64,000 bases of DNA. Origin: Candidatus Hydrogenedentota bacterium (lineage in GTDB: Bacteria > Hydrogenedentota > Hydrogenedentia > Hydrogenedentales > SLHB01). The number at the start of each line of letters is the position of its first letter. The first letter of the stretch is position 1. The stretch covers positions 384,001-448,000 of the forward strand of contig CAXXTH010000017.1 of the NCBI GenBank assembly GCA_963668025.2. Reading direction: 5' to 3'. Below, piece after piece: positions 4,860-24,259 of the stretch. The position numbers and the translations under genes were made by a program. The notes under the pieces are model-generated. The model made no database searches. It saw only the letters and a list, made by a program, of their open reading frames with translations, and was not told the origin of the DNA.

Positions 4860-6926
4860 TTAATGCGCCTCATCCGCGCCTACCTCGGCAGGTTCTTCGC
4901 TCCGCTTCTCGAAATCGAATTCCTCTGTCTTCGGGATTTGCTGTGGAATACGCACCTCGCATTTATCGCCGTCGCAATAGAGGTCCTGGGCCTCGTCCGT
5001 ATTGAGATCATAGAACTCGATAGGCTTCAGCCGCGCGATGGCATGCTGGTACATCTCCGCGCTGATTTCTTGATACGGGGCTTGGGCGTACTGGTGGTCG
5101 CTCAAGGGAAGAAAACTGACGGATTTCAATCGTGATTCGTACAGCTCGAGAATCTGCGGCAGATCACACGCCTCTTCGGGGCGGAAAGTCACGGTGACGC
5201 TCACCTGATTATCGGCCCAGTAATATTGCATCTGCGCCGCATTCTCGACTTGCTCCCAGATGGATACGTCGTTCTTCGAACGTTCGAAATTCATGGACTC
5301 GACTGGAAACGAGACCACCCATGTGTTGTCCCCGTAGACGGATTCCTCGATGTGGTAGCCCGCATTGCGCAATGGCTCGACGAGCGGGCTGGTTTTGTCA
5401 AGGCGGATGGCGCGCAGATAATAGCGGGAATGGGGGTAATGGATGCCCGGCGTCACGCCAGGGAGCAGCGAGACCGTGCCGCTGGGCTTTACGCTGGTCT
5501 TCTTGATGCTCTCGGGAATGCACAGCCACTGGGCGTAAATGCGGTCCAGATCGCAGATATATTGGTAGCCTTTATCGCACCACTCGAGATGGGCGCGCCG
5601 GCCATGCTTCTCGAAGGATTCGACAATGCCGGACTGCGACAATCCGATGCGACGGTTGCGCAGCATGATGGCGTTGGTGCGCTCGTTGTGCGTCGGAATG
5701 AGGGTCACTGTTTTGGCGTATAAATAGGCAAACTTGAGGGTGCGTTTATATTCATCGAAGCTTTCATGCAGCGACGGGAAGGTTTCAACGAGGTTGCAGA
5801 TCTCGTAGGATTCGAGGCTTTGTTCGGCGCAAGGATTTGTACCGGCGACTTTAACATCACGGTACGTAGGCCCGTCTTTCAAGCGGCCATACGCGCGCGC
5901 GTTTTCGAGCCAGAAGTAGCCGGGCTCGCCATTTTTGGCGGTTTGTTCGCCCAGCATCCGGTAATCCATGCCCATGGAGGCGGAAACGCTGTTGTTTGAA
6001 GCCCAGCGCCAAGCCATCAGTTTTTTACTGTTCAATTCCGGGTCTTTGAGTTTAAGGTACTCCGCATCGCCAGGATCGCCCAGGGCCAGTTCCGCCGTCC
6101 GGCGCACGCCTCCGGATACGACGCATTTCCCGATGACATTCATCAGGTCCGTGATATCCACGGAGCTGATGCGGTCGCCCGTGCGGGGCTGCAGAATGGC
6201 GTGGATATTCTCGATGCAGTCCATCAACGGCTTGGGGCCGGGGGCAATGCCGCCAAAAGTGCGGATGGGCGACCCGAGCGGGCGTATTTTCGAATAATCA
6301 ATGTGTAGCGGCAGCTTGTCCCGCCCGGCATAGGACTCGAGCACGCAACGGACCAGATCGACCCAGCCCTCTTTCGAGTCATCCACCACATGCGTGTAAT
6401 CGGCGGTCTTGGGCTCATGTATCAGCAATGCGCCCGCGCCTTTCGTATCGAACGCCACGCCCACGCCCAGCAGGGACATATCCATCAAAAAGCAAAATGG
6501 TTCGGAAAAACTAAAATCTATCTCCGCCGTGGACACAAAGGCGCAGTTATTTAAAGCAGCCGAGCCCCGCTCATAGATGTAGTCCGTGCCCATCATCCAA
6601 AGGCCACGGCCTGGGGGCAGAAATTTGAATTCCCACATGAGGCGGAACATTTCTTGGGCGGAACGCTGGGCCTTATGAGGGTTCCAAGGCAGCTTGAGGT
6701 TGCGGCAATGGTTGATCTGGATGGTGTAACATCCCTCGACGACCCGGCGCACGGTCTCCCAGTATTCCTCGGTGCGCCCGCCACTATCCGGCACGGCGCG
6801 GGCATAGGTGCGCTTGAAGGTCACATATCCCAGCGGGCCCCATTTAGGCTGGCCGCCTCGATAGCGTTCGATAAAATTGTCCGATAATTTAAAACGTTCT
6901 TTGGCTTCAAACAGCATTTCTTTCAC
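4860..6926 (-). CDS. nrdJ: Class II (adenosylcobalamin-dependent) ribonucleotide reductase, monomeric RTPR type
   Basis: PPGRGLW, ALNNCAF, GTNPCAEQ (radical Cys), CNLVE, VKPSGTVS, and C-terminal CDGDKC redox pair. No intein seen. Confidence 0.92.
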   Translation of the reverse strand: MKEMLFEAKERFKLSDNFIERYRGGQPKWGPLGYVTFKRTYARAVPDSGGRTEEYWETVRRVVEGCYTIQINHCRNLKLPWNPHKAQRSAQEMFRLMWEFKFLPPGRGLWMMGTDYIYERGSAALNNCAFVSTAEIDFSFSEPFCFLMDMSLLGVGVAFDTKGAGALLIHEPKTADYTHVVDDSKEGWVDLVRCVLESYAGRDKLPLHIDYSKIRPLGSPIRTFGGIAPGPKPLMDCIENIHAILQPRTGDRISSVDITDLMNVIGKCVVSGGVRRTAELALGDPGDAEYLKLKDPELNSKKLMAWRWASNNSVSASMGMDYRMLGEQTAKNGEPGYFWLENARAYGRLKDGPTYRDVKVAGTNPCAEQSLESYEICNLVETFPSLHESFDEYKRTLKFAYLYAKTVTLIPTHNERTNAIMLRNRRIGLSQSGIVESFEKHGRRAHLEWCDKGYQYICDLDRIYAQWLCIPESIKKTSVKPSGTVSLLPGVTPGIHYPHSRYYLRAIRLDKTSPLVEPLRNAGYHIEESVYGDNTWVVSFPVESMNFERSKNDVSIWEQVENAAQMQYYWADNQVSVTVTFRPEEACDLPQILELYESRLKSVSFLPLSDHQYAQAPYQEISAEMYQHAIARLKPIEFYDLNTDEAQDLYCDGDKCEVRIPQQIPKTEEFDFEKRSEEPAEVGADEAH

Positions 6927-6972
6927 CTCATATTTCCTTCAAAGCGCCCCCGCTTAGCCTGCCCCAAGTCCC

Positions 6973-7755
6973 CTATACATTTCCATGAGGTGTTTTCACC
7001 CATGGCAGTCCATCCACGTACTCGGCTTCATAATCCCCAAACACATTTGGATACCGTTTGCGGACTATATCGAACACCTTGCCAAAGACAAGGCGGATCT
7101 CCTCTTCCGCGTGCGGATCCGTGCGTACCTCCAGAACATGGCGGAGCGTCCGAAAATTGCATGTCCAGCCTACGGATGTCGCCAGTCCGATGGGGGCCAT
7201 GCGCCGGAAGGCCGAGGTCAGCTTCTTCTTCCGGTCGAAAGCGCTCTCTTCATCGATTTGATATAACTCGGCCAGTTGCCGCTGTAGCTCCTCTAATTGC
7301 TCCATGGTGCGGACGAAAATCTCCATCGCCTCTTCGCTTTCCCGGATGTGGGTGGGCGCCCAGGCAGACAAAGAATCGAGGCGCACATATCGCAGCGATT
7401 CCTGGGAGATGGCCGTGCCGGCGCGGTGGCGCACCAGTTCGTGGGTGAATACGCGGCTTACATCCGCGAACACAAAGTTCACCGTGGCGTGCTCGAGCAC
7501 GCTGCCATGGCCAGAAGCAAGGATATTCGCCATATAGGGGGCATTGCCCTGCCGTACGCGGGTGACATTGGGATTAAGCCCCGGCTCGAAGGAGCGGTAG
7601 CATAAGCGCCCATAGAATTCGCATAGCCGTTCGCCATCGCTCGGCGCATCGGTATTCCATTCCGGCGCGCCGAGATGCTCGAGATAGGCGGTCAAGCCTT
7701 CTTCCACGACTTGAGTCTCACCGACTAAAAAAACCTTGGGTTCTATGAGTTTCAT
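6973..7755 (-). CDS. thyX: FAD-dependent thymidylate synthase
   Basis: GRLCYRS, GHGSVLEH, SRVFTHELVRHR...SQESLRY ThyX motif, HAEEEIR. Confidence 0.95.
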   Translation of the reverse strand: MKLIEPKVFLVGETQVVEEGLTAYLEHLGAPEWNTDAPSDGERLCEFYGRLCYRSFEPGLNPNVTRVRQGNAPYMANILASGHGSVLEHATVNFVFADVSRVFTHELVRHRAGTAISQESLRYVRLDSLSAWAPTHIRESEEAMEIFVRTMEQLEELQRQLAELYQIDEESAFDRKKKLTSAFRRMAPIGLATSVGWTCNFRTLRHVLEVRTDPHAEEEIRLVFGKVFDIVRKRYPNVFGDYEAEYVDGLPWVKTPHGNV

Positions 7756-10950: not shown

Positions 10951-12852
10951 CTACTGCATCCGGGCCTGCACGCTTGGGAAGCGGTTCATGTCCGTGTGGG
11001 GCAGAAACAGGGACGCCATGTATTCGTCCATGTAGCCCGGCGTGTTGCTCAGATCCATATAGGTCATTCGGCGGGCGATGTCAAGCTGGCGTTTCCGGTA
11101 CTCTTGCGACACGGCCACCATGTAGGAGCCCATGAGCGAGGCGTTGCCGATGTATTGGAAGCGTTCCCGGGGGATGTCGGGCGCGAGGCCGAGGATGATG
11201 GTCTTCTCGAGATCGAGGAAACGGCCAAAACCGCCCGCGATATAAATTCGCGCCAGATCCTCGAAGCCGATGCCAATGTGCTGAAGCATAAGCGAGCAGG
11301 CGGAATAGATGGCCCCCTTGGCGCGCACGATGTTTTCGATGTCCATCTCGCTGATGGCGATGGCTTCGCCGTTGGCGCTTTCTTCGGCGGAAGCGATGAT
11401 ATACCGCGCCCGCTTGCCGTCGTTCTTGATGTACGGCGACGGGCGGTCGCGGTCGAGTTTTCCCGCGGGATTGAGCCATCCCGTGATGAACAGGTTCGCC
11501 AGCAGCTCGATCATGCCCGAGCCGCAGATGCCTTGGGGCGCTCCTCCGCCAATGGTGTGATATCGCGCCGCGCCGGTATCGGGGTCCACATCGACGCTCT
11601 CGATGGCCCCGTGTGCTGCGCGCATGCCACACTGGATGCCGCCACCTTCAAAGGCGGGGCCTGCGGAACAAGCGCAGCTCATCAGAAAATCGCTATTGCC
11701 CACCACGAGCTCGCCGTTTGTGCCGATGTCGATAAACAGGCTGATCTCCTCGGATTCGGCGGCGAGGTCGGTGCATAGGAGGCCCGCCGTGATGTCGCCT
11801 CCTACGTAGCTGCCATTGTTGGGCGAGAAACAAATCCAGGAATCGGGATTGATCGGCAGGCCCACTTCGGCTGCGGTGACATAGGGCACTTCGAGCACCG
11901 TGGGAGTGTACGGATCTAGCCGGATGTACTCTGGATCAAGCCCCAGAAGCAAATGGTTCATGGTGGTGTTGCCCGAGATGACGGCATTGGTGATCTCCTC
12001 GGGTTCAACGCCGTTCTCTTCGGCGGTTTTTGTGATGAGCGTATTGATGGTGTCCAAGACACGCATACGCAATTCTTCGAGGCGTTCGGGCCGTTTCGCA
12101 TAGTTGATGCGGCTGATGATATCGAGGCCGCACACCACTTGGCCGTTATACGCCGTGTGGGTGGACATGATCCGCGCCACGGTAAGGTTGATGAGCTGCA
12201 CCGCCACGGTCGTGGTGCCCACGTCCACGGCAATGGCGTAATGGCGCGTGGTCTGGTTGCCCGGCTCGATGCGGATGACGTAGAGCTTGTCATCCTCGCG
12301 GACAAGCGTCACCGTGACCGCGCCATCCTTGGCGCGAAGGCTGCCCGCCAAGGTGCGTAGCACGCGCAAGGAATACACCACCTCGTGGCGGCCCCATTGA
12401 AGCTGGATCGCGCGCGTCAGCCGGTCTAGATCCGACAACCCGTCTTCCGGCTGGGGCTGCGGCACGAGAAAGAGCCACTTGACCGCGAGGGGATCATACT
12501 CCCATTCGCGGGGCAGCAATTCGCGGCGGATGAGGTAGGTCTCGTCGCCGTCGGCGAATTGGCCGCCTTCGCGGCCCGAGGGGCGGGGCACTTCAACCGT
12601 GATGTCCGATGTGAGCAAATGGGTCTTGCAAGCCAGCACATAGCCGTCGGCAATCATGGTGGGAGGAAGTGCGCCCCGGCCTTCCGACTCGATCTTGCCT
12701 TGTGTGATGCGGACGATGCATTTGCCGCATGTGCCCTTGCCGCCACAGGGCGACTCGACTTCGACGCCCGCCTTGCGGGCCACATCGAGCAGTTCCGCGC
12801 CAGGCAAGGCCTCCGCGATGGTTCCACTAGGCTCGAATGTCACCTTTGGCAT
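10951..12852 (-). CDS. acsV: Reductive activator of the corrinoid iron-sulfur protein (RACo/AcsV; 2Fe-2S + ASKHA ATPase)
   Basis: N-terminal CGGKGTCGKC...LAC ferredoxin, then DVGTTT, GNTTM, DIGTNGE, GPAFEG, GICGSG and AGGFG. Adjacent to acsC. Confidence 0.88.
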   Translation of the reverse strand: MPKVTFEPSGTIAEALPGAELLDVARKAGVEVESPCGGKGTCGKCIVRITQGKIESEGRGALPPTMIADGYVLACKTHLLTSDITVEVPRPSGREGGQFADGDETYLIRRELLPREWEYDPLAVKWLFLVPQPQPEDGLSDLDRLTRAIQLQWGRHEVVYSLRVLRTLAGSLRAKDGAVTVTLVREDDKLYVIRIEPGNQTTRHYAIAVDVGTTTVAVQLINLTVARIMSTHTAYNGQVVCGLDIISRINYAKRPERLEELRMRVLDTINTLITKTAEENGVEPEEITNAVISGNTTMNHLLLGLDPEYIRLDPYTPTVLEVPYVTAAEVGLPINPDSWICFSPNNGSYVGGDITAGLLCTDLAAESEEISLFIDIGTNGELVVGNSDFLMSCACSAGPAFEGGGIQCGMRAAHGAIESVDVDPDTGAARYHTIGGGAPQGICGSGMIELLANLFITGWLNPAGKLDRDRPSPYIKNDGKRARYIIASAEESANGEAIAISEMDIENIVRAKGAIYSACSLMLQHIGIGFEDLARIYIAGGFGRFLDLEKTIILGLAPDIPRERFQYIGNASLMGSYMVAVSQEYRKRQLDIARRMTYMDLSNTPGYMDEYMASLFLPHTDMNRFPSVQARMQ

Positions 12853-12884
12853 GGGGTGCTTCCTGGTTACAAAAGCAATCATTT

Positions 12885-13026
12885 TCTGGGGGACCCTTTC
12901 TTTCGCAGAAAGGGTCCCCCAGACCCCCCTCCCAAAGAACTCTCATTTGCTCCGCGAGCAACGCCTAATCAAAGGTTTTTGGAAAGGGGTTCGGGGAAAA
13001 CCTTTTTGCAAAAAGGTTTTCCCCGA
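12885..13026. repeat. Composite palindromic (BIME/REP-like) element inside the acs operon
   Basis: Hairpins TCTGGGGGACCCTTTCT-TTCGC-AGAAAGGGTCCCCCAGA (12885-12923) and TCGGGGAAAACCTTTTTGCAAAAAGGTTTTCCCCGA (12991-13026). Inner arms CCCCTCCCAAAGAAC and GTTTTTGGAAAGGGG. Confidence 0.75.
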
Positions 13027-13065
13027 TCTTCGTATCCACAATATACCCGCATTCATCTTCCGAGA

Positions 13066-14412
13066 CTACGCCGCGAGCACGTTTTTTATGAAACTCTCGA
13101 GATCGCCCGCTTCTTGCGGCCCTACGATGATTTCCCAGCCGGGCATGGCTTCCTCGAGTTCACCCGAGATCTGCGCCACGTAGCCGGGAATGACGATTTT
13201 GCGGTTCTTGGTTTTCGATTCGAGCTCGAATTCTTTGGCGAACTTGCCGATCTTGTCGCCGCCAAATTTGCCCGCCGCCCAGGATGTCAGCACGCTCATG
13301 CCCTCACATTCGGGTATCAGCAGCCAGGCCGAGAGGCCCGCGTTTTCGATTTCGCCCGACACGATGAAGTAGGTGAGCGAGAAGTTGGTGGTGACGAATG
13401 TCGGGCTCGTATCCGTAGGCTCGCCGATGGCATAAATCTTCGGCTCGACTTGGATGGGCTTCTGCGGGTCGGTATAAATATTTTGTCGCAGCGCCAGCAG
13501 CGACACCATCACCGCCGGGTCGAATTCGGGCAGAATCACAATGCCGCCGTACTTGGTGATCTCGAGGCCCGCCTCGACGGCGTCATCCATGGCGTTGCCT
13601 GTGTTCACGTAGGCGAGGGACGGGTAACCGAGCGTCTTGAGGCCCGTCTTGAGCGCGCCGCGCCGCATGATGATATGGTTTTGCACGTGTTCGCAAAGGC
13701 TGTCCGCTCTCAATTCAAGCAGGATATCGCGAAATTCCGCCGCCATGCAGGTTTCGACCATGGCCGCGAGGGCGTTGAAATTGTCCGCCGCCAACGCCAG
13801 CACGGCCCCATTCGCCTTAGCCGCTTCACACAGCGGGCCCACGGTTTCGGGCGTGGCTGATGCAAGGATGGGCTTGCGGCCCTTGAGCGTTTCAGACGCC
13901 GCCATAAGCAGGCTGGAATCGTCCGTGCGCACCACGATTGCGCCGCCCCACAAGGCCGCCACGCGCTCGATGCAGGCCAGATAGGCGTCGCGCGAGCCGC
14001 TCGAGCAGGCCACGCTGATGGCGTTGAGGCGGAGCTGTTCGCCGACGCGGTCCAGCGTGTAATCGGCCACGGCCTTCACGCGCGCTTCGAGTTCCGCAAT
14101 GTCCATGGCGTCATCCACGGCCACGCCGATGCCCGTCTCGTGGACAAAGGTTTTTTCATGGCGGTATGCAACCGTTTCTCCGCCCACGGAGAAGGCCCGC
14201 TCCCCCGCGCCGATAACGATGGTGCGGATGGGCGGTTCAGCAGCCGCACCGAGGATGGCCTTGGCTTCCTCGGACGCATAAGGGCATTCGGATAACTCGG
14301 CTTTCTTCGCCGCGAGCTTCATGGCGAAGGCCAGGCACGTGTTCGAGCCGCATTCCTTGCAATTCGTTTTCGGGAGCAGTTTTTGTATCTGCAAGCCAGT
14401 CAAGGGGGCCAT
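13066..14412 (-). CDS. acsC: Corrinoid iron-sulfur protein large subunit (CFeSP gamma)
   Basis: LPKTNCKECGSNTCLAFAM...CP Fe-S motif, RHEKTF, QNIYTDPQKP, TTNFSLTYF, SVLTSWAAGKF. Confidence 0.95.
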   Translation of the reverse strand: MAPLTGLQIQKLLPKTNCKECGSNTCLAFAMKLAAKKAELSECPYASEEAKAILGAAAEPPIRTIVIGAGERAFSVGGETVAYRHEKTFVHETGIGVAVDDAMDIAELEARVKAVADYTLDRVGEQLRLNAISVACSSGSRDAYLACIERVAALWGGAIVVRTDDSSLLMAASETLKGRKPILASATPETVGPLCEAAKANGAVLALAADNFNALAAMVETCMAAEFRDILLELRADSLCEHVQNHIIMRRGALKTGLKTLGYPSLAYVNTGNAMDDAVEAGLEITKYGGIVILPEFDPAVMVSLLALRQNIYTDPQKPIQVEPKIYAIGEPTDTSPTFVTTNFSLTYFIVSGEIENAGLSAWLLIPECEGMSVLTSWAAGKFGGDKIGKFAKEFELESKTKNRKIVIPGYVAQISGELEEAMPGWEIIVGPQEAGDLESFIKNVLAA

Positions 14413-14434
14413 GGTGCATGATCTCCTGGCGCCG

Positions 14435-17400
14435 TTATTCGGGCCGGTTGTTGGCGGACAGCTTCTGTACGTTGCGCCGCAGGATTTCCAATGATTCGGG
14501 ATGGTGCAAGATGAGCAAGTCCGCGCCGCTGGTGAGCAGCGTCATAGCGGTCTGCACTTCCCACAACACCGCGCGTTTCTCGATAGCGCCCCAATTCGGG
14601 AACGACGACTCGAGCGCATGGCCTTCCTTGGCCTTCCAGGCCTCCTGGCCCACATGCCCGAACAAGGGGAAGGCCAGCGACGCATCGCCGCCGAATCCTG
14701 TTAGGCGGATGCGTTCCATGACCGAGAAGGTGTATTCGAGGCCGTAACCCAGTGCGCCCACCATGGGGTCCATGATAATGCGGTCGCGAGGCAGGTCCAT
14801 GTTACCGAGCAGGATATTGAGCTGTTTGGCGAGGTTCACGTCAATCGGGCTCTGCGCCACGACGCAATGGCCATAGGCCAGCGCCGCGCCCGCTATGGTG
14901 CGGTAATTGTCGCCTTCCACCCAATTGAGCAGGAGGCGCTCGCCCGCGCAACCCGAGGCGACTTTTTTCATCACCTCATTGGTGGAATCGAAGTGGCTAT
15001 GGCCGGTGATGATGAGCGGCACATCCACGGCGGCGAGGATATCCTTCACCAGCGCCAGGGCGTCATCGGGACTTTTGCCACCCTTTTCGGGATGCGTGCC
15101 TTCGAGGCGCACCGAGATGATCTCCGCACCGTATTGCTCGACGGCGGCCTTCGCCATCTCGGCGGGCTTGGCCGCGAGATCGCCCCAGACGCCCCGCAGC
15201 ACCGGCGACAGCTTCGGGCTAACGGTGTCGAACACTTCAAGCGCAAAGACCGGCGAATTCGGAATGGAGCCCTCGAAATAGTGGAACGGCAGGCAATTCT
15301 GGCCGCCAAGGGCCACCGTGCGGCCACGGGTGCCGCCATCGGCGGATGTCGCGCCCAGCACCACGGCCTGAATGGTCTCGCCGGGCGATTCGCTGGGCAG
15401 GGCGAAAGCCGACACTTCAGCCAGCTTCTCCGCCGCATAACGCGTGGGAGCTTTCACCTCAACCACTTCGATCACCGGTTTCACCGGCGCTTCCGCGATT
15501 GGAGAGAGTGGGAGCGTGGCAGGCGCGGGAGCCATTGGCGGGGCGGCAATGGCCATGCCCAGTGGCGCAATGCCTTGTAACACCCCCGCAATCGCGCCTA
15601 CCACGTCCACAAGCAGTTCTCTTTTTAGGTCAGGAGAGGGCTTCACTTCAAGTTCTTCTTTCAGAGAGGCCTTGATATCCTCCATGATCGATTTCCGCAG
15701 TTCCGGCACTAGCTCCGTCTTGAGCGTGTCTTTCAACTGCGCGGATACTGTATCTGTAATCTGCTTAAATAATGCTGACAATAGATCGCCAGCTCCGCCG
15801 TTGCTGCCCGGAATGTGGGCTGCCGCAGGCGGCGCCGGGGCTGGCGGCGTGGAAAGCGCGGCGGCCGATTCGGCGGGCTTGGCCTTTGGTGCGATGGCAA
15901 CGAATTTAGGCTCCGGTTTCGGGGCCGCCTTGGGCGCTGAGGCCTCTGCCTTGGCTTCGGGCGAGGCCATTTCGTAGACATCTTCCTTGCCTACCCACAT
16001 CGTCGCCATGTCTTCCATCGTGACGGCGGGATGGCCTACTTTTTCCATGTAGGCTTTGATTTCCTGTGGATCCGTGGCGATGGTTTCATCGGCGATCTTG
16101 CCCCACAAATCCGGGAGTTCCAAGGCTTTCGCGCGCGACTTAAAATCGTCCGCCAGGATATCCTTGAGTTCCTTCGGCATCCAGACGACGCGCGCAAGCC
16201 CGCCATCGGCGTAGAGGAACTTCGGGCTTGAGAGGAAGGCCTTGCCCACGCCCATGAAGCCGGGCGTCTGGACGCCGCCGCCCACCATGCCCGCGAGCGA
16301 ACTGAACGGCATGCCGATGGGCGTGTCGCCAGGGAATTCGCGATTGACGATCATGACGCCGTTGCACTCGGGCACATAGGCCACGATGCTCTCGAAACAG
16401 CCGCACGAGGTCATGGGGTTGTCCATGATGCTGTAGGCCGTGAAGCTCTTGATGGCCTTGTGCGAGTTTTTATACACGTATTCGTTGACGCCTTCCCATA
16501 TGCCGCGCTTCGGGTCAAGGCAGCGCCCCTTCTCGACGGGCTGGTTCGGGCCGGTCTCATCGATCTCGTGGGCAGCCTTGCCATCGAGCCAGTTGTACGC
16601 GCCGCACAGGCCGAGGCGTTCGGGCGTGATGATGCATACATGATCTGGCGCGAATGATTGGCACAGCAGGCAGCTATAAAATGTCTCGACGGATTCGTCG
16701 GTCATGGCCGCCAAGCGGTGGTTGCGCTCGATATACACCTTACGCGCATGGGCGAGGCGTCGCTCGACCTCTTCTTTTTCCGTCACCAGCGTGACCTTGA
16801 CCTTGTCCACGATGGCCGGATATTCATCCAGGAATTTGGCATGTAGAATCTCGCCATAGTGTTTCAGACGCAAACCTTTAGCGAAACCGCCCTTGCTGAC
16901 GCGCGTCCACACGATGTCGCGCTGGCCCATATGCCAAAGGCCTTCCGCGCCGTTCAGCAGATGGTGAATCTGGCGTTCGAGAATAGGCTCGAAATCGGAC
17001 TGCATCTTGCGGCCCGCCACTTCGACCCAAATGGCCAGCGGCAGCGCCGTGCCCTCGGGCACCTGGTCGATATCCGGGCCGATAATCTCGATCTCGCCGT
17101 CATTGATATCGTCCAGTTCGACCATGGTGGCGAATTCGAAGGCGGGCGTGATGTTGCCGCCGAATTCGGCATGCACGTCGGCCTTCCGGATGCGTTCGCC
17201 CTCGAAGGCGGGGCCGTAGGGCACGGGCACAGGCACATTTGCCACTTTAATTTTGCAGCCGCGCACCTCGAGGGAGCGTTCGACGATTCTATCAAGGGGC
17301 ACATTGCTCACCACGTGTTCGTAGGTGCAGACGCCCGTGGGCAGGATCTCGGGGATATCCGTGTCGGCGATGGTCGGGAAACCGTAATTGATCGCGCCCG

Positions 17401-18181
17401 CCGCCGCTGCGTATTTCTCCTGGTCCACCTCGCCCAGCGCCATGACAAAGGCGAAGATGCGGTTCTTGTTGTAGCGCAGGTTTCGCTCGAAGTCGCCGGG
17501 CTGCACGCCGCCGAACGATAGAGCGGCGCGGCTGGCGAAACCGAGGGCATAGATGGCCGCCGACACATCATGGCCGAAGGGCACGAGGCGCGTCTCCCAG
17601 CCCAACTGCACGCCTTCGGCGGCGAGCTGTTCTGCGAAGGTCACGCCATCGACCGCACCCGCCATGAAGACATACAGGTTCTTCTCCTGCAACTGCCGGG
17701 CGATCTTCACCGCCGTGGCGTTGTCCGGCGCGGCTCCCACCACGGCCGCGAAACCGGGCGCGGTGCCATCCACGAATTCGATGCCGCGTTCGCGCATGAT
17801 CACGTCGTTGGCCGCACCGAGCCAGATCCCATCGACGGGATTCGGGCCGATCAGATATTTGCACGCTTCGATGGCCTCGAAGGCAAACAGCGTAGCCACG
17901 CCCGCGTCGAGTGCGTCGCCCAGATAGGGCAGCCATACATTCTCGGATGGCGGCTCGGGCAGCAGGTTGTGGCAGTCTTGCATCACCTCGACGAGGTCGC
18001 TTAGTTTCTGCACTTTCCGGCCCGTAAACGAATAAATGACCGGAAGATAATAGGCCGTGCCGGGGAATCCCACGGGATGCTCGGCCCCCTTGGCTTCGAT
18101 AGTCCGCGCAAGCATGGCGTTGGCCCGCTCGACGGCTTCCTTGGCTCCTACGATGGCGTCGGTGCAAATGGCCTTAGACAT
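14435..18181 (-). CDS. acsB: Acetyl-CoA synthase (AcsB) fused through a long linker to the CFeSP small subunit (AcsD)
   Basis: First ~735 aa are AcsB: FPGTAYYLP, A-cluster ligands SCLLCQSFAP, HVC, GLCG, TSCGC. C-terminal ~310 aa are AcsD: GATSADGGTR, VAQSPIDVNLAKQLNI, MDP..GALGYGLEYTFSVMERIRL, EAWKAKE, GADLLILHHP. One continuous ORF. Confidence 0.9.
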   Translation of the reverse strand: MSKAICTDAIVGAKEAVERANAMLARTIEAKGAEHPVGFPGTAYYLPVIYSFTGRKVQKLSDLVEVMQDCHNLLPEPPSENVWLPYLGDALDAGVATLFAFEAIEACKYLIGPNPVDGIWLGAANDVIMRERGIEFVDGTAPGFAAVVGAAPDNATAVKIARQLQEKNLYVFMAGAVDGVTFAEQLAAEGVQLGWETRLVPFGHDVSAAIYALGFASRAALSFGGVQPGDFERNLRYNKNRIFAFVMALGEVDQEKYAAAAGAINYGFPTIADTDIPEILPTGVCTYEHVVSNVPLDRIVERSLEVRGCKIKVANVPVPVPYGPAFEGERIRKADVHAEFGGNITPAFEFATMVELDDINDGEIEIIGPDIDQVPEGTALPLAIWVEVAGRKMQSDFEPILERQIHHLLNGAEGLWHMGQRDIVWTRVSKGGFAKGLRLKHYGEILHAKFLDEYPAIVDKVKVTLVTEKEEVERRLAHARKVYIERNHRLAAMTDESVETFYSCLLCQSFAPDHVCIITPERLGLCGAYNWLDGKAAHEIDETGPNQPVEKGRCLDPKRGIWEGVNEYVYKNSHKAIKSFTAYSIMDNPMTSCGCFESIVAYVPECNGVMIVNREFPGDTPIGMPFSSLAGMVGGGVQTPGFMGVGKAFLSSPKFLYADGGLARVVWMPKELKDILADDFKSRAKALELPDLWGKIADETIATDPQEIKAYMEKVGHPAVTMEDMATMWVGKEDVYEMASPEAKAEASAPKAAPKPEPKFVAIAPKAKPAESAAALSTPPAPAPPAAAHIPGSNGGAGDLLSALFKQITDTVSAQLKDTLKTELVPELRKSIMEDIKASLKEELEVKPSPDLKRELLVDVVGAIAGVLQGIAPLGMAIAAPPMAPAPATLPLSPIAEAPVKPVIEVVEVKAPTRYAAEKLAEVSAFALPSESPGETIQAVVLGATSADGGTRGRTVALGGQNCLPFHYFEGSIPNSPVFALEVFDTVSPKLSPVLRGVWGDLAAKPAEMAKAAVEQYGAEIISVRLEGTHPEKGGKSPDDALALVKDILAAVDVPLIITGHSHFDSTNEVMKKVASGCAGERLLLNWVEGDNYRTIAGAALAYGHCVVAQSPIDVNLAKQLNILLGNMDLPRDRIIMDPMVGALGYGLEYTFSVMERIRLTGFGGDASLAFPLFGHVGQEAWKAKEGHALESSFPNWGAIEKRAVLWEVQTAMTLLTSGADLLILHHPESLEILRRNVQKLSANNRPE

Positions 18182-20129
18182 TGAGCGCTCTCCGGTCTTT
18201 CATGTCGAACAGTTTACGTTCCGCTTTCTTGTTGATCCCCAGGGCGTCGCGCTTCTTCTCGATATGGGCGCAGATCACCTCGATAGCCTTATGGACATCG
18301 GACTCGTAATGGAACTTGGCCCCCACTTCGGCCTCGAGGCCTTGCGTGAGGTATTCGGTGACATTCTTCGAGCCCATGGTGTGGAAAGGATGGCCCAGCA
18401 CCACATCCACGCCCGACGCCACGAAGTAATGGCCGATAGCCACGGCCTTTTCGCTCATCCACTCGGGGGCCGCGCCGATGGCGGGCACCTCGGAGAGGTC
18501 GTTGCCGAGTCCGCCTTCTTCAACGATGTACGTAGCGGCCATGAGAATACGGGAGTTGTCCACGCACGAACCCATATGCAGCACCGGCGGAATGCCCACC
18601 GCCTCGCACACTTCGCGCAGGCTGTCGCCCGCCATTTGAAGAGCCGTCTCGGGCGTGAGCAGCCCCGCTTTGCCGCAGGCCACCGCCGCGCAACCCGTCT
18701 GCAAGACGAGCACATTGCGCTTGATCAGCTCCTTGGCCAACGTGAGGATGTATTCATCCATCTTGCCGTGGCGCGCATTGGTGCAGCCCACGATGCCGCA
18801 CACGCCGCGAATGCGGCCCGTGATGATGGCGTCATTGAGCGGGCGGAAGCTCTTGCGGAATGTGCCGCCTAGGATGTTGAAAATCGTCTCCGTGCTGAAT
18901 CCAGCCACGAGCGGACTGCGGTGATCGGGGATGGCCACCTTTTTCGGATCCCGGTTCGGGAAATTATCAATGGCTTTCCAGAGAATCGCCTTGGCGGACG
19001 CCAGGCCGTCCTCGGGCTCGTAGTTCACCGGCTCCGCGCCGATATTCATGGCGATGGGGCTGGTGGTCAGAATCTTGGTGTGGTAGCACTTCGCCACTTC
19101 CGGCAGCGAGGCCATGCAGCACTGCACATCGGTGATCATGAGTTCGACGGCGCCCGTGATGATGGCGAGTTCCTGCTGAAGGAAATTACCCGCCACGGAT
19201 ACGCCGTGGCGCATGAGCACTTCGTTTGCCGTGCAGCAGATGCCCGCGAGGTTGATCCCCTCCGCGCCCACTTTCTTCGCGGCGGCCACCATCTCGGGGT
19301 CGTTCGCCGCCACCACCAGCATCTCCGTGAGCGCCGGTTCATGGCCATGCACGAGGACATTCACCATTTTTTCTTCGAGGACGCCCAAATTCGCCTTGGC
19401 CTTAACGGGCTTTGGCGTGCCGAACAGGATGTCGCTCACGGCAGTGGCGATCATTGAACCGCCCCAGCCATCGGCAAGGGACGTTTTGAGTGCGCCTCGA
19501 ATGATGTTTTTATAGTCATGGTCCACGCCGATATGGGTGCGGTGCAGGCATTCCACTACGGAGGCGTCCACGCCGCCCGGTGCGATTTTCATGTGGTCCC
19601 ACACGCTTTGGCGTGGCTTGGGCGCCAGTTCGAGGGTTTTCAGTTTGCCTTCCTGCAAGCGGAATTCATCCAGAAACAGCTCGGCCAGATTGCGCACGAC
19701 ATCAAGGGTGTCCACACCCGCTTCCTCGACGCCCCATGCCCGGGCGGCGGAGCGCAGCTTGCGCTCGTCGCTGATCTTGTAATCGCCGCCGTTGCCTTCG
19801 CCGACGCGCTTAAGCAACAGCACCAAGTGGCGGCCATGGTCCGAATGGGCCGCCGTGCCAGCCGCCACTTCACGGAGCAGATTGCGCGCCACGACGGTGT
19901 CCAGGGTCGCGCCGCATACGCCCGGCGTGAAGTCAGATATCTTGCAAGGCCCCATATGGCAAATGCGGCAGCACGTGCCTTCCGAGCCAAAGGTGCAGGG
20001 CTTACCTTGTTCATCCGCCCTCGAGAAAGCATCGTTCTCGACGCCGTCCGCATCGGCTTTCCTGAGCATTTCGATGCTTGCCTGATCAACGGCCAAGTCT
20101 TCGATGCGCCGCTCACGATCATCCGCCAT
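18174..20129 (-). CDS. cooS: Anaerobic Ni-Fe carbon monoxide dehydrogenase catalytic subunit
   Basis: CTFGSEGTCCRICHMGPC..VCG (D/B clusters), HSDHGRH, and C-cluster ligands HGHEP, ICCT, DVQC, VGC, TGC, GSCVDN. Overlaps the acsB start. Confidence 0.95.
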   Translation of the reverse strand: MADDRERRIEDLAVDQASIEMLRKADADGVENDAFSRADEQGKPCTFGSEGTCCRICHMGPCKISDFTPGVCGATLDTVVARNLLREVAAGTAAHSDHGRHLVLLLKRVGEGNGGDYKISDERKLRSAARAWGVEEAGVDTLDVVRNLAELFLDEFRLQEGKLKTLELAPKPRQSVWDHMKIAPGGVDASVVECLHRTHIGVDHDYKNIIRGALKTSLADGWGGSMIATAVSDILFGTPKPVKAKANLGVLEEKMVNVLVHGHEPALTEMLVVAANDPEMVAAAKKVGAEGINLAGICCTANEVLMRHGVSVAGNFLQQELAIITGAVELMITDVQCCMASLPEVAKCYHTKILTTSPIAMNIGAEPVNYEPEDGLASAKAILWKAIDNFPNRDPKKVAIPDHRSPLVAGFSTETIFNILGGTFRKSFRPLNDAIITGRIRGVCGIVGCTNARHGKMDEYILTLAKELIKRNVLVLQTGCAAVACGKAGLLTPETALQMAGDSLREVCEAVGIPPVLHMGSCVDNSRILMAATYIVEEGGLGNDLSEVPAIGAAPEWMSEKAVAIGHYFVASGVDVVLGHPFHTMGSKNVTEYLTQGLEAEVGAKFHYESDVHKAIEVICAHIEKKRDALGINKKAERKLFDMKDRRALNV

Positions 20130-20161
20130 TATCTATCCTCTCCAGTTGGCTCGCGTGCAAT

Positions 20162-20512
20162 CTACTGATTGCCCTTAGGAGCAAAGGTCTTTTCTTCGGT
20201 CGTCCATTGCATAAACTCCACGACCGTTCCCGCGTCGTATATAAAAGCGGCCACCACGTTCTCCATGGCCTGGAACGGGCCAAGAATCACGTTCTTGCCT
20301 GAGATTTCCCGTTCCAAATCATCCGTCGTGAAGGCCAAGTGCGGCTGCATGCGCAACGGGCCCGTGACGGGCGAATCGGATTCATAGCGCAAATACTCGA
20401 TTCGATACGGATGATTGCCCGGCTCCGTCACGAACACCTTCGTCTCCGCCACGTAAATCTCGCCGTCGTGTTTTTCATCCGTCGGCAGTCCCAAATGATG
20501 AAACTCTCGCAT
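20162..20512 (-). CDS. Small VOC/glyoxalase-fold protein
   Basis: Likely start MREFHHLG at 20512 (GGAG upstream). FHHLG, IEY, PHLAF..DDL and VVEFM fit the vicinal-oxygen-chelate pattern. Confidence 0.6.
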   Translation of the reverse strand: MREFHHLGLPTDEKHDGEIYVAETKVFVTEPGNHPYRIEYLRYESDSPVTGPLRMQPHLAFTTDDLEREISGKNVILGPFQAMENVVAAFIYDAGTVVEFMQWTTEEKTFAPKGNQ

Positions 20513-20616
20513 GGCTTTCTCTCCCTTAGGTACCATGGCCGTCCCAGCCATGCGCATGGGCGGGACGCCCATGCTACGGTATTCAAGATCATGAGCCGCT
20601 CTAGCAAAAAATGGCG

Positions 20617-21378
20617 TCAAGCCGCCATGTATCCGAGCATGTGTTCCGCCGCTTGGTATGCGGCGCTATTCTTGGATAGCTCGAACACAGGCGCGCCGGT
20701 GGCGTCTTGCCTGGCCACCTCGGGGTCTTCCGGCAGGCCGCCAAGCACCTTCACGGGAGTGCCCGCGAACAGCTCTTCGGCGCGGGCCAGGCAGGCCTCA
20801 TCTCGAAGCCGGTTAATCACGACACCCATGTGACCCGCCTTCATTTCCATCTCGAGGGCGAGGTCATATAGCCGCCGCGCCGTCAAAATGCCGCGCGCGG
20901 AAGGGTCGGCCACGAATACCAGCCAATCCGTTTGCTGCACGGTGCGGCGGCTCAGATTTTCAAGTCCTGCTTCGTTATCTATCACCACGGCGGGGTACTG
21001 GCCAGATAATTTCGATAGCACGCCCCGCAACACATTATTCGCGTAACAGTAACAGCCGGGGCCTTCCGAGCGGCCCATGGCGATCAGGTCGAACCCTTGC
21101 GCCTCGACCAGCGACTCCTGGATCTTCATGTCCAGCAAGTCCTGTTTGCTGACACCCCCCGCAATGCCCGCTTGCGCGATGGCCTTGGCCTCCTCGCGCA
21201 CGCCGCCCACGGTGTTCGACACCTGCACGCCCAGCAGCGCATCGAGGCACATGTTCGGATCGGCGTCCACGGCCAATACGGGGCCTTTGCCCCATTCGCC
21301 CAATAGGCGCACCGCTAACGCCGCCAGCGTGGTTTTCCCTACGCCGCCCTTGCCTGTCACCGCCAGCGTCCAGCTCAT
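20617..21378 (-). CDS. cooC: CooC/AcsF-type nickel-insertion ATPase
   Basis: GKGGVGKT, DADP, GPGCYC metal motif, DNEAGLENLSR. Confidence 0.9.
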   Translation of the reverse strand: MSWTLAVTGKGGVGKTTLAALAVRLLGEWGKGPVLAVDADPNMCLDALLGVQVSNTVGGVREEAKAIAQAGIAGGVSKQDLLDMKIQESLVEAQGFDLIAMGRSEGPGCYCYANNVLRGVLSKLSGQYPAVVIDNEAGLENLSRRTVQQTDWLVFVADPSARGILTARRLYDLALEMEMKAGHMGVVINRLRDEACLARAEELFAGTPVKVLGGLPEDPEVARQDATGAPVFELSKNSAAYQAAEHMLGYMAA

Positions 21379-22289
21379 CCCAAGATCTTCTTCATGGTTT
21401 CAGCGACGGCTTTAATATGCGCGGGCGAAGAGCCACAGCAACCGCCAATGAATTTCGCACCAGCCTTCAACAGCACCGGAACGGCATGCTCATATACATC
21501 AGGCGTGGCCTTGAACACTGTCTTGCCGTTTTCATCCACCATGGGTTTGCCCGCGTTGCCTTTCACCCAGATGGGCACATCATCGCCGCATTGGGCGAAC
21601 AACTCGGCGATATGGGCGAAAGTCTCGATGCCCGCCCCGCAGTTCGCGCCCACGAAGCTCGCGCCCATGGACTTCGCCAGTTCATAGGTCTGGAGGATGC
21701 TGACGCCCATCATGGTGAATTCATTGTTTTCACCCGAATCGAAGGTCATCGACACGCCCACCGGGAGTTCCGGCGCGCCGCGCAGGCAGCCGCGCAATGC
21801 CGCCGCCACTTCCACCAGATCGCTCTGCGTCTCGACGACAATCGCATCAGCCCCGCCATCGGCGAAAGCCTTGGCTTGTTCCGCGGCGGACGCCTCGACC
21901 TCTTCCTCGGACACTTCGCCCATCATGACGATCTTGCCGCAGGGACCGAGCGAGCCGAATACATAGGCTTTGCCCAATGCCGCTTTCTTCGAGATCTCCG
22001 CACCGGCTTTGGTCAGTTCATACGCCCGCTCCGCGATGCCGTGCTTGGCGAGTACGATGTGGTTGCTGTTGAAGGTATTGGTCAGGATGACCTGCGAGCC
22101 CGCGTCCACATAGCCCTTGGCCACTTGGAATACCTTGTCCGGCTCGTCCACATTCCACGTATCACACATCTGGCCCGGTTTCGCGCCGAGTTTCGCCATT
22201 TCGGTGCCCCAAGCGCCGTCCGTGCATAACGGGGGGAGGTCTTTGAAGTTTTCTTTGGTCAGTTTCTTCGTCGCATCAAACTGCATCAT
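21375..22289 (-). CDS. Stand-alone homocysteine S-methyltransferase domain (MetH N-terminal/BHMT family)
   Basis: DGAWGT, ILTNTF, GSLGP, ET, GANCG, NAGKP and IGGCCG (Zn ligands). No pterin or B12 domain follows. Confidence 0.85.
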   Translation of the reverse strand: MMQFDATKKLTKENFKDLPPLCTDGAWGTEMAKLGAKPGQMCDTWNVDEPDKVFQVAKGYVDAGSQVILTNTFNSNHIVLAKHGIAERAYELTKAGAEISKKAALGKAYVFGSLGPCGKIVMMGEVSEEEVEASAAEQAKAFADGGADAIVVETQSDLVEVAAALRGCLRGAPELPVGVSMTFDSGENNEFTMMGVSILQTYELAKSMGASFVGANCGAGIETFAHIAELFAQCGDDVPIWVKGNAGKPMVDENGKTVFKATPDVYEHAVPVLLKAGAKFIGGCCGSSPAHIKAVAETMKKILG

Positions 22290-22318
22290 ATGCCTCGCTT
22301 TCTTATGGGCTCCCGCCG

Positions 22319-23386
22319 TTAAAATCCGTACTTGCTCTTCAGCAGTTGGCTCGTCGCGCCGAGTTTCTGGAACACCTGCTCCGCGTCCGCCACTTCCATC
22401 GAGCCCGTGCCGCACGACGGCGTGATAAAGGCCTGTTCCAGAATCACTTGCTTGTCGATGCCCGCCTTCTGCGCTAGATTGTCTGCAAGCGTCTCAAACC
22501 TCGCCGCCAAGCCTTCCGGACTCTGTTCACGGATAGCAGGACTTGTCGGTACTACGCCCCAGGCCAGCGCGTTATGGTTGTCCATAAGATGGCGCTTCAT
22601 AGGCTCGGGATACAGGGCCACGGTTTCACCATAGTCAAATGCATCGAAGTTCAGGATATCGACACCCGCGTCCACGAGGATGGACCACTCGGTGTTGCCG
22701 CAGCAGTGGATGCCCGCGAATGCGCCTTCCAGGTGGACCGCCTCGATCACTTCGTTCAACCGCGCCACCACGTCATCGCGTTGCACGGACACGTAGGTCG
22801 AACTGCCGAAGGCCGACAAGATGGGCTCGTCAATGAAGCAGATGATATTTTCCGCATAGGGTTTGAACTTCTGGATCTGCCAGCGACATTTCATGGCCAG
22901 GGCCTTCACCACGACATCCAGGAACTCTTCGTTGTAATAAATGGCGCGCTTGTTCTCGTCCACGATGGTCAGTGCAAAACTGATGGGGCCGGTGGTTTGG
23001 CATTTGATGTACGGCAGCTTGGCCCCCAGCGATTTCACTTTCGCCTCGAGGGCGGGAATGCCCGCGCTGAACGCCGGGCTGATGGCCCCCGCCGAGCAGT
23101 CGTTCTCTTCTTCCGCCAGCATGTAGCCTTCATAAAACGCCGCCAGCTCTTCCGAGTAATCGCCCGAGGTGTCGATGTACATGCGCGACTTCGCCTCGTC
23201 GATTACGACGCGCGGGACGCCCTCGGAATACTGGATCTCCATCTGCTCGTGCAAGCCCAGCTTGGGCAATTGCGGCCAGATGGGGGCTGTGGGGATGCTG
23301 CTGAAGATCAGCTCGATGGCCTTCGCGGGGTCCGCATAAGGCAGCGAACCAATCGCCGTGGCTGTGCATTTCGCCTTGATGTCCAT
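22319..23386 (-). CDS. Short core-MetE / MesB-like methylcobamide:homocysteine methyltransferase
   Basis: 355 aa single barrel. TAIGSLP, WPQLP, K.QTTGP, FIDEP, GIHCCG, AWGVVPT, ITPSCG. Lacks the folate-binding N-half of full-length MetE. Confidence 0.72.
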   Translation of the reverse strand: MDIKAKCTATAIGSLPYADPAKAIELIFSSIPTAPIWPQLPKLGLHEQMEIQYSEGVPRVVIDEAKSRMYIDTSGDYSEELAAFYEGYMLAEEENDCSAGAISPAFSAGIPALEAKVKSLGAKLPYIKCQTTGPISFALTIVDENKRAIYYNEEFLDVVVKALAMKCRWQIQKFKPYAENIICFIDEPILSAFGSSTYVSVQRDDVVARLNEVIEAVHLEGAFAGIHCCGNTEWSILVDAGVDILNFDAFDYGETVALYPEPMKRHLMDNHNALAWGVVPTSPAIREQSPEGLAARFETLADNLAQKAGIDKQVILEQAFITPSCGTGSMEVADAEQVFQKLGATSQLLKSKYGF

Positions 23387-23455
23387 AGTTTGCTCTCCTT
23401 ACTGCTTTGCGTTTCAGCAGGGCGTCTATTATCCGAAATAGGCCCCGGGGCCCCA

Positions 23456-24259
23456 TTATACCAGCTTGGCTTCACTTCCAATGCGCGCTTTAGCGCTCTC
23501 CCACAACTCCTCAAATACGCCTCTTAGCCGTTCATCGGCGATATCCACCAGCGGTGCGCTGTCGCGGTCCGCCCGGCGAATCGTTTCGTCATACGGCAGC
23601 CAGCCCAGCACATCCTCGCCCGCGCACGCTTGCGTGATGAACGCATGGTCTTCCGGCGACGCGATTTTATTGGCGATGACCGCCACGCGCTGGACGCCGA
23701 TCTCCGCCGCCATGCGCCGCACCGCCGCTGCTGTTTCGACCGAACGCGCGCCGGGCTCCACCACCACCACCATGAGGTCCACGCCCTTGGCCGTCGCCCG
23801 GCCCAAATGCTCCAGGCCCGCTTCGAAATCAATAATGACGCAATCGTCTTTATACAGAATCACGTCCGTCATCAACGCCCGCAGCATCACGCTCTCGGGG
23901 CACGCGCACCCCGAGCCGCCGCTCTCGACCGCTCCCAACACCAGCAGATGAATGCCCCGGAATGAAGCCGATTCCTGTTCGGCGATATCCGACACATGGG
24001 GATTGAGTTTGAAAATTTGGCCGTATTGCTTGACCTTCGCGCCCGTGCGCTCCTCGATAAGGGCGCGCCGCTCCGAGAGGGGGATGATCGCGTTACGGCC
24101 TTCCAGAGGCATGCCGAGGGCCTCCGCCAGGTTCGCATCCGGATCAGCGTCCACCGCCAGCACGCGCAACCCTTCGGCAGCCGCCAAATGGGCGAACATC
24201 GCCGCGATAGTGGACTTGCCCACGCCGCCTTTGCCGCTGACCGCGATCTTGAATCCCAT
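23456..24259 (-). CDS. cooC: Second CooC-type nickel-insertion ATPase
   Basis: SGKGGVGKST, DADPDANL, GSGCACPE, DFEAGLEHLGR. Confidence 0.9.
   Translation of the reverse strand: MGFKIAVSGKGGVGKSTIAAMFAHLAAAEGLRVLAVDADPDANLAEALGMPLEGRNAIIPLSERRALIEERTGAKVKQYGQIFKLNPHVSDIAEQESASFRGIHLLVLGAVESGGSGCACPESVMLRALMTDVILYKDDCVIIDFEAGLEHLGRATAKGVDLMVVVVEPGARSVETAAAVRRMAAEIGVQRVAVIANKIASPEDHAFITQACAGEDVLGWLPYDETIRRADRDSAPLVDIADERLRGVFEELWESAKARIGSEAKLV

Follow-up and report, generated by a model that had tools for sequence, protein, structure and literature searches.

A stretch of 64,000 nucleotides from Candidatus Hydrogenedentota bacterium (assembly GCA_963668025.2, contig CAXXTH010000017.1, positions 384,001 to 448,000), referred to below as the window, was analysed for a gene cluster encoding nickel carbon monoxide dehydrogenase (Ni-CODH), acetyl-CoA synthase (ACS) as well as the corrinoid iron-sulfur protein (CFeSP, also written CoFeSP), together with a putative zinc methyltransferase that is called P1 here. 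The listing of open reading frames (ORFs) and the family scans agreed with an earlier note on this DNA, which had described nine co-oriented and closely spaced genes including an AcsB::AcsD fusion. The nine genes lie on the minus strand at 10951-24259, and the spacing between them ranges from -8 (an overlap) to 183 nt. In the direction of transcription the features are as follows.

23456..24259, minus strand: cooC1, first paralogue of the Ni-insertion ATPase, 267 aa (CbiA/ParA-type ATPase; PF01656 CbiA, 71 bits)
22319..23386, minus strand: P1, single-barrel Zn methyltransferase resembling MesB/core MetE, 355 aa (assigned by predicted fold and residues; no Pfam match)
21375..22289, minus strand: stand-alone homocysteine S-methyltransferase domain protein, 304 aa (longest ORF to 22415; PF02574, 191.9 bits, cut-off 22)
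20617..21378, minus strand: cooC2, second paralogue of the Ni-insertion ATPase, 253 aa (PF01656, 52.6 bits)
20162..20512, minus strand: small protein of VOC fold, 116 aa with the ATG at 20512 as start (longest ORF 20162-20620; assigned by fold match)
18174..20129, minus strand: cooS/acsA, Ni-CODH catalytic subunit, 651 aa (TIGR01702, 632 bits, cut-off 478)
16004..18181, minus strand: AcsB portion, residues 1-726 of the AcsB::AcsD fusion (NF040764, 1051 bits over residues 11-725, cut-off 800)
15380..16003, minus strand: linker between the fused parts, rich in Ala and Pro, about 208 residues (read from the translation)
14435..15379, minus strand: AcsD domain of the fusion, the CFeSP small subunit (NF003376, 352 bits over residues 936-1242, cut-off 280)
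13066..14412, minus strand: acsC, large corrinoid-binding subunit of CFeSP, 448 aa (NF003195, 508 bits, cut-off 306)
10951..12882, minus strand: reductive activator of corrinoid protein (RACo, AcsV-type), 643 aa (PF14574, PF17651, PF17650 and PF00111)

It was tentatively concluded that the nine genes constitute one operon, which would carry a complete Ni-CODH/ACS, CFeSP, two CooC proteins, RACo and two Zn thiol-methyltransferases; this conclusion is held jointly with the reading of P1 proposed below, and the two together fall somewhat short of an even chance. The promoter scan recorded 5 promoter-like sites where 5.4 were expected by chance, and the terminator scan recorded 19 sites against 13.4 expected (standard deviation 3.7), which is not clearly above chance. 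The ends of the operon were therefore not supported by these scans.

CooS, the three-domain AcsB, AcsC and AcsD each scored above a curated cut-off, as expected of a bacterial CODH/ACS with CFeSP. AcsB, the linker and AcsD form a single frame of 1248 aa (14435-18181), the linker of which was poorly conserved, with a tblastn match in only 5 of the 80 related loci described below. The closest solved chain to the AcsD domain was the small subunit of the Moorella CFeSP (4djd_D, 303 bits), and AcsC matched the Carboxydothermus large subunit 2h9a_A with 368 bits. The AcsD domain reached 252 bits against the WLP_AcsD model, under the cut-off of 430, and passed the CdhD-type subfamily model NF003376. 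Judged by these matches, the CFeSP is of the bacterial type. In the available portion of a preprint, bacterial CoFeSP is described as dependent on a dedicated methyltransferase and archaeal CoFeSP as self-loading (PMC13370988); hence a separate methyltransferase would be needed here. The two CooC paralogues were 33% identical to each other. The RACo gene scored 676.7 bits against the AcsV model NF040756, under its cut-off of 800, and all four RACo/Fer2 Pfam domains were present.

No protein of the operon matched PF00809, the family of AcsE, in the Pfam scan. The P1 protein had no Pfam match at all, Meth_synt_2 (PF01717) included, and its sole NCBIfam match was PRK00957 'methionine synthase' with 18.9 bits (E 6.5e-4). 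Against the sequences of solved structures phmmer returned 0 matches, and a P1 profile gave only chance matches with E of at least 0.79. The P1 family was nevertheless large: among 8000 candidates scored, 4470 proteins had E of at most 0.001, and 1944 representatives at 50% identity were obtained, 416 of them with E below 1e-30. In 60 diverse members the residues G13, P16, H227, D248 and C325 were invariant, and S14, D186, E187 and C229 were conserved in at least 90%. Weak matches to PF01717 occurred in 9 of the 60 (best E 5.4e-5), and weak matches to the uroporphyrinogen decarboxylase (URO-D) family PF01208 in 4.

The predicted model of P1 (pLDDT 97.7) was closest to the catalytic barrels of MetE and to the core MetE 3rpd, with Z of 24-26 and a root-mean-square deviation of about 3 Å over 282-293 residues. 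The alignment to the MetE C-terminal barrels and 3rpd covered residues 1-355, and an N-terminal folate domain was absent. Lower scores were obtained with UroD (Z about 20) and with MtaA 4ay7 (Z 19.8). An hhalign comparison with E. coli MetE (probability 40%, E 3e-4) paired H227 with H641, C229 with C643, D248 with E665 and C325 with C726, so that P1 has Asp where MetE has Glu665; in the same alignment, with its probability of 40%, D186 was paired with the homocysteine-binding D599. S14 was matched to Ser433 by the common IGSxP motif alone, as the N-terminal part lay outside the alignment. The spacing of the Zn ligands was +2/+21/+98 in P1, +2/+21/+97 in the core MetE of Dehalococcoides mccartyi and +2/+24/+85 in E. 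coli MetE. Because of the MetE-type fold, the ligand residues and the spacing nearly equal to that of the D. mccartyi enzyme, P1 is, in its predicted architecture, a MesB/core-MetE-like single-barrel Zn enzyme, and the same designation in the earlier note was thus borne out. It was also considered whether P1 was a PF01717-type core MetE such as those found elsewhere in the phylum. This was rejected, with 25 bits by BLASTP and a probability of 2% by hhalign; PF01717 had no match in 5 P1-type genomes. In a cluster look-up, 10 distant representatives had 'hypothetical protein' as their only name, and a second homologue search, with a relative of Anaerolineae type as query, yielded no entry from Dehalococcoides.

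Further, the distribution of P1 was compared with that of AcsE. For this, the length of the AcsB frame was used to sort the ACS-bearing genomes of the same phylum and those of a sample of Verrucomicrobiota, a frame of at least 1150 aa being taken as fused-size. In the own phylum 13 of 135 genomes had ACS. Four of them, the genome of the window included, had fused-size frames of 1250-1304 aa; all four carried P1, and their PF00809 matches were FolP and MetH only. Eight genomes with frames of 607-770 aa had no P1, and each had at least one short PF00809 ORF not resembling FolP, which lay on the acsB contig in 4 of the eight. Three own-phylum clusters were examined and contained an AcsE of 288-303 aa after acsC or RACo. 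The remaining genome (G140), with an AcsB frame of 846 aa, carried a P1 split by a TAG codon (contig C125, 26980-27904) and no short PF00809 ORF. In the Verrucomicrobiota sample a CdhC match was found in 11 of 301 genomes. P1 was present in 8/8 genomes with AcsB frames of 1154-1198 aa, one of which had extra short PF00809 ORFs on other contigs. Two genomes with frames of 727-731 aa had no P1, and the acsB contig of each carried a short PF00809 ORF. One genome with a weak partial CdhC match had neither P1 nor such an ORF.

When both phyla were pooled, P1 was found in 12/12 fused-type genomes and in 1/11 with shorter frames, the single copy there being the broken one. A short, AcsE-like PF00809 ORF unlike FolP was present in 10 of the 11 shorter-frame genomes, on the acsB contig in six. 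An intact P1 beside an AcsE-like gene was observed in none of the 23 genomes grouped by AcsB type. Since P1 accompanies the fused AcsB::AcsD and an AcsE-like gene accompanies the unfused form, P1, as far as gene content tells, stands in the place of AcsE.

The surroundings of P1 were then compared more widely. By means of six P1 peptide patterns, 496 relatives were located in a species-level genome collection, and the 80 best of these loci were taken together with flanks of up to 10 kb; the locus counts given here refer to these 80. A cooC1-like gene was present in 79 and a cooC2-like gene in 77. Where at least 9 kb was available downstream of P1 (49 loci), cooS, acsB, acsD and acsC followed on the same strand in 45, cooS only in 1 and none of them in 3. 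The module is conserved among these loci. Both AcsB and AcsD were present in 48 loci, and in 47 of these they were joined in a single open frame, the exception being a stop-ridden assembly. The median identity to the proteins of the window was 75.5% for acsB, 66.7% for P1, 62.7% for cooS and 56.7% for acsC. With the AcsE proteins of same-phylum clusters as queries, no AcsE-like sequence was detected in any of the 80 loci.

The record titles with the module include Planctomycetota, Verrucomicrobiota, Lentisphaerota, Kiritimatiellota, Hydrogenedentota, Acidobacteriota, Bacteroidota, Bacillota and Spirochaetota, and P1 belongs to a discrete CODH/ACS module spread over many phyla. The acsB of the window was 53-59% identical to that of AcsE-type clusters of its own phylum and 60-83% identical to P1-type acsB in other phyla; this closer relation across phyla points to horizontal spread of the module. 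In 40 P1-type genomes from many phyla, 27 had only FolP-like and/or long MetH-like PF00809 matches (3 of the 27 being closed chromosomes), the other 13 had an additional short or mid-size PF00809 ORF of 27-123 bits, and 28 had a frame resembling MetH with a length of 650 aa or more. Directly upstream of the HcyMT-P1-ACS genes, where HcyMT denotes the homocysteine methyltransferase, MtaC and RamA were encoded in four loci (L055, L065, L066 and L073) and MtaC alone in a fifth (L068). The order in the Pontiellaceae locus L066 was MtaC-MtaB-CobW-RamA-HcyMT-P1-ACS. The MtaC proteins of the five loci were 89-97% identical and represent one lineage. Two other loci showed peculiarities: L022 had many stops through cooS, acsB and acsC, its P1-type cluster looking decayed or badly assembled, as does that of G140 with its split P1, and in a Bacillota metagenome-assembled genome (L036, 4913-5563) a DUF3786 gene (PF12654) was located upstream of the HcyMT, P1 and ACS genes.

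The start of the stand-alone homocysteine methyltransferase was taken as the likely ATG at 22289. Its scores against the NCBIfam models for YitJ, BHMT and MetH stayed under their cut-offs, and the protein carries the motifs GANCGAG and GGCCGSS, the cysteines of which we take to be the Zn binders. Of the 80 loci, 48 have a PF02574 gene no more than 3 kb away from P1, and the other 32 have none there. It lay upstream on the same strand in 37 of the 48, downstream as in the window in 9, and upstream on the opposite strand in 2. In a tree of 46 PF02574 rows the nine downstream copies formed one clade (support 100/99), and all 44 module copies were placed apart from the Hcy (homocysteine) module of MetH and from a copy near an AcsE-type cluster (89/82), the tree being unrooted and its branches long. 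The protein is probably a second methylase of the MetH-module type, and its partner would be CFeSP or a different corrinoid protein. In a Victivallales chromosome (L035, 7973-9978) two tandem, nearly identical PF02574 genes were observed immediately upstream of P1.

The small ORF at 20162-20620 had no Pfam or NCBIfam match. Its predicted model (pLDDT 92.1) matched structures of glyoxalases and methylmalonyl-CoA epimerases (Foldseek E 1e-4 to 1e-3, TM 0.6-0.68), and for this reason the VOC label proposed earlier was retained at the level of fold, with no support from sequence families. With 35 homologues it is a conserved, real protein. Its gene was absent from all 80 related loci and is outside the conserved module.

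The operon is flanked by unrelated housekeeping genes, namely an esterase, a PIG-L deacetylase on the opposite strand, PriA and RtcB. A further cobamide-dependent function was noted nearby, a B12-dependent ribonucleotide reductase (class II type) that adjoins ThyX at 4860-7755 of the window. A DDE transposase gene (PF13701/PF01609) is located at 35059-36612.

The host genome comprises 6.15 Mb in 24 contigs and is 93.75% complete. In a PF00809 search acsE was absent from the operon, from the window and from the whole genome at that completeness; the only matches were FolP, encoded between ftsH and glmM, and a 1214-aa MetH, on contigs C9 and C6. The AcsE proteins of same-phylum clusters, used as queries, matched only the pterin module of MetH, and neither MtrH nor a PF01717-type MetE was found in the genome. 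MetF was located at C17:638797, Fhs at C17:813520 and FolD on contig C10, all outside C17:384001-448000. The absence of acsE, metF, folD and fhs from the window, as stated in the earlier note, was therefore confirmed, and the last three genes were found elsewhere. The proposal of a folate-independent system did not survive, as the genome contains Fhs, FolD and MetF in addition to the MetH; of the whole-genome check outlined in the same note, the methyl branch and MetH were thus found, which speaks against its proposal, and acsE was not, which speaks for it. MetF and Fhs were isolated among unrelated housekeeping genes, and a catabolic methyl branch with MetV/Hdr partners of MetF was rejected for this genome on that account. 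The alpha subunit of formate dehydrogenase (Fdh-alpha) was not found in the genome, and four enzymes resembling pyruvate formate-lyase (PFL) were. The view that the module serves methyl supply rather than autotrophy fared unevenly: the lack of Fdh-alpha fits a non-autotrophic role, whereas a dedicated methyl supply for methionine looks redundant in the presence of MetF and MetH.

Several other genes for methyl transfer and corrinoid chemistry were noted in the genome. On contig C10 the methanol:corrinoid methyltransferase MtaB (PF12176, 564 bits) is encoded by itself at 1043393-1044832, downstream of which lie a phage-type integrase gene and then a DDE transposase gene. At about 581950-586030 of the same contig a small corrinoid protein resembling MtaC is enclosed by three genes of the URO-D family (343, 357 and 392 aa), a cluster that looks like a methyltransferase system. 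No pterin-type methyltransferase was found in the genome that would accept a methyl group from MtaB or from this cluster. A second RACo-type activase of 618 aa, 33% identical to that of the operon, is encoded beside a radical SAM gene at 1194487-1196343 of contig C17. On contig C9 a segment of 11 kb (178906-189625) holds five ORFs of 484-614 aa that have B12-binding domains and may encode B12-dependent radical SAM enzymes.

Based on these observations, we tentatively proposed that P1 acts as a methyl port of CFeSP, exchanging the methyl group between cobalt and the sulfur of homocysteine or methionine, with a net flow from acetyl-CoA to methionine. ACS would cleave acetyl-CoA, the methyl group would pass to CFeSP, and P1, binding to CFeSP and using homocysteine as its thiol, would hand the methyl group on to form methionine; CO would be oxidised by CooS, and Co(II) would be rescued by RACo. 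The best-supported reading is that P1 would be the methyltransferase between CFeSP and homocysteine/methionine; run in the thermodynamically easy direction, it would give this flow from acetyl-CoA to methionine, which is the scheme of the earlier note. In the accessible parts of two reports, the core MetE of D. mccartyi takes its methyl group from methylcobalamin and not from methyl-tetrahydrofolate (methyl-THF), and it has been proposed to draw on AcsCD (PMC7005905, PMC7857596). A core MetE that draws methyl from CoFeSP is thus an already published Dehalococcoides proposal, to which CODH is added here. A search of the open-access literature found no account of a module in which P1 lies between two cooC genes, AcsB and AcsD are fused and AcsE is excluded.

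A number of findings weigh against this proposal, and they keep in play, without proving it, a flow of the methyl group the other way. In such a scheme P1 would mainly methylate Co(I)-CFeSP from methionine, and homocysteine/methionine would be the methyl carrier instead of tetrahydrofolate. Methionine would be made by MetH from methyl-THF and by the stand-alone homocysteine methyltransferase from small corrinoid proteins loaded by MtaB-type enzymes. ACS would join the methyl group with CO from CooS, and the acetyl-CoA so formed would provide fermenters with ATP and with a sink for electrons. The mutual exclusion of P1 and AcsE-like genes is as expected from this scheme. Fhs, FolD, MetF and the full-length MetH of the host make a role in methionine synthesis only redundant, and two homocysteine methylases in one compact operon are an unexplained redundancy, when here the two enzymes would have separate jobs. 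MetH-like long frames were present in 10/12 fused-type and in 4/11 other genomes, as well as in the majority of P1-type genomes across phyla; MetH is thus commoner with P1, the opposite of what would be predicted for a replacement methionine synthase. The conservation of P1 is on par with that of cooS and acsC, which suggests that it is a core component and not an accessory. The MtaC genes directly upstream of the HcyMT-P1-ACS genes in the five loci, with RamA in four and MtaB in one of them, hint at methyl input, as do the MtaB and the URO-D/corrinoid cluster of the host, which has no pterin-type methyltransferase; the four PFL-like enzymes are in line with this scheme.

Nevertheless, the use of methionine as the carrier was considered unlikely, though it deserves to be taken seriously. 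The transfer of a methyl group from a thioether to Co(I) is uphill, at a cost of about 15-20 kJ/mol by the values of the methanogen coenzyme M system, and no case is known to us in which methionine donates its methyl group to a corrinoid protein. The only characterised relative of P1 runs from methylcobalamin to homocysteine. The adjacency of the mta genes is limited to one lineage (5/80 loci), MetF and Fhs are solitary, and Fdh-alpha was not found. The exclusion of AcsE by P1 must itself be read with caution, and this weighs on the proposed methyl port too: the genomes are kin and each type of module moves as a block, so that the counts represent two designs and not 23 independent events.

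It was further considered that the CFeSP loads itself, the AcsC and AcsD barrels taking methyl straight from methyl-THF as in the archaeal acetyl-CoA decarbonylase/synthase (ACDS), with P1 as a side branch that taps methyl for methionine. Pterin methyl transfer without an extra enzyme is described for archaeal CoFeSP, and the tether between AcsB and AcsD, with its disordered linker, recalls the disordered regions of archaeal subunits, as far as the available text of the preprint goes (PMC13370988). The passing of the CdhD-type model by the AcsD domain, which fell short of WLP_AcsD, and the whole folate branch in the genome agree with this. The closest relatives of the AcsD domain and AcsC are, however, the AcsE-dependent CFeSPs of Moorella and Carboxydothermus, and the presence of P1 in every fused-type genome, never intact beside an AcsE-like gene, would be left unexplained; self-loading was hence held to be improbable. 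Equally, P1 might load CFeSP from another substrate, such as S-methylcysteine, S-methylmethionine, methylmercaptopropionate or methanethiol/dimethylsulfide, in the manner of MtsA-type enzymes. The Zn thiol-methyltransferase fold common to P1 and MtaA and the weak URO-D matches within the P1 family are in line with this, and the redundancy with the PF02574 enzyme would be removed. The probability given to it is very low, as hhalign pairs D186 with D599, the residue of MetE that contacts the homocysteine amino group, S14 corresponds by motif to the IGSxP serine, and the fold of P1 is nearer to MetE than to MtaA.

CODH/ACS is usually taken to mark the Wood-Ljungdahl pathway, which many surveys, according to the excerpts available, score by requiring AcsA-E. 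Such AcsE-based scoring would call the genomes with this module, of which at least 496 at species level were located by the six P1 peptide patterns, 'incomplete' or misread them. If the methyl group indeed passes to homocysteine, the module would be a widespread acetyl-CoA-to-methionine route that bypasses folate. A reverse flow would be a new way of feeding ACS. If methionine were the carrier, this would amount to a bacterial thiol-based methyl relay analogous to coenzyme M in methanogens and to an unrecognised acetogenic electron sink for fermenting heterotrophs of many phyla.

Among the known systems, the closest likeness is to MesB/core MetE of D. mccartyi, cbdbA481 = DET0516 (Deobald 2020, PMC7005905; Price 2021, PMC7857596). 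Both proteins are single MetE-type barrels of about 350 aa with His, Cys, Asp and Cys ligands (H215, C217, D236 and C312 in D. mccartyi; Deobald 2020, PMC7005905) at near-equal spacing. In the sections available of Price 2021 (PMC7857596), membership in MesB is set at 130-173 bits to DET0516, and the equivalents of the homocysteine-binding Ser433 and Asp599 are kept while that of Glu484 is not; in P1 the first two would be S14, by motif, and D186, by hhalign with a probability of 40%. Both occur with AcsC/AcsD, and for MesB too the methyl group is proposed to come from CoFeSP. P1 differs in being fixed between two cooC genes in a CODH/ACS operon, the operons described in the published excerpts being mesB-acsCD in methanogens, and MesB is there often the sole methionine synthase, whereas P1-type genomes mostly carry MetH as well. 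The genome of the window also has CooS and MetF, both unlike D. mccartyi, and the His122 'HxxG' feature described for the Dehalococcoidia enzyme had no evident counterpart in P1 when compared by eye, without alignment.

AcsE (MeTr, the methyl-THF:CFeSP methyltransferase) shares with P1 the same place beside a bacterial-type CFeSP. The folds are unrelated, AcsE being a pterin barrel like that of dihydropteroate synthase (DHPS) and P1 a MetE/UroD barrel with Zn, and the predicted substrate of P1 is a thiol or thioether, not a pterin. With MetH, or a split MetH, the operon has in common the stand-alone PF02574 protein as homocysteine module, and CFeSP and RACo could act as the B12 and reactivation modules; the operon differs in having no pterin module, and its corrinoid carrier would be the two-subunit CFeSP. 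In one AcsE-type genome (G041; L103, 3762-4649) a stand-alone PF02574 gene was observed about 2 kb from a cooC-RACo-acsE-acsC-acsB-cooS cluster, and no long MetH frame was present in that genome, so that CFeSP, AcsE and the PF02574 protein may act there as a split MetH.

The methylcobamide:thiol methyltransferases of the MtaA/MtsA type resemble P1 in the Zn-activated thiol, the corrinoid partner and the barrel superfamily. Their thiol is coenzyme M, and P1 is structurally nearer to MetE; MtsA is bidirectional with dimethylsulfide. Finally, the archaeal ACDS likewise lacks AcsE and, in the preprint text available, has subunits joined via disordered segments (PMC13370988). It differs from the system described here, which has bacterial-type subunits (three-domain AcsB, CooS and a Moorella-like CFeSP) and always includes an additional Zn methyltransferase.

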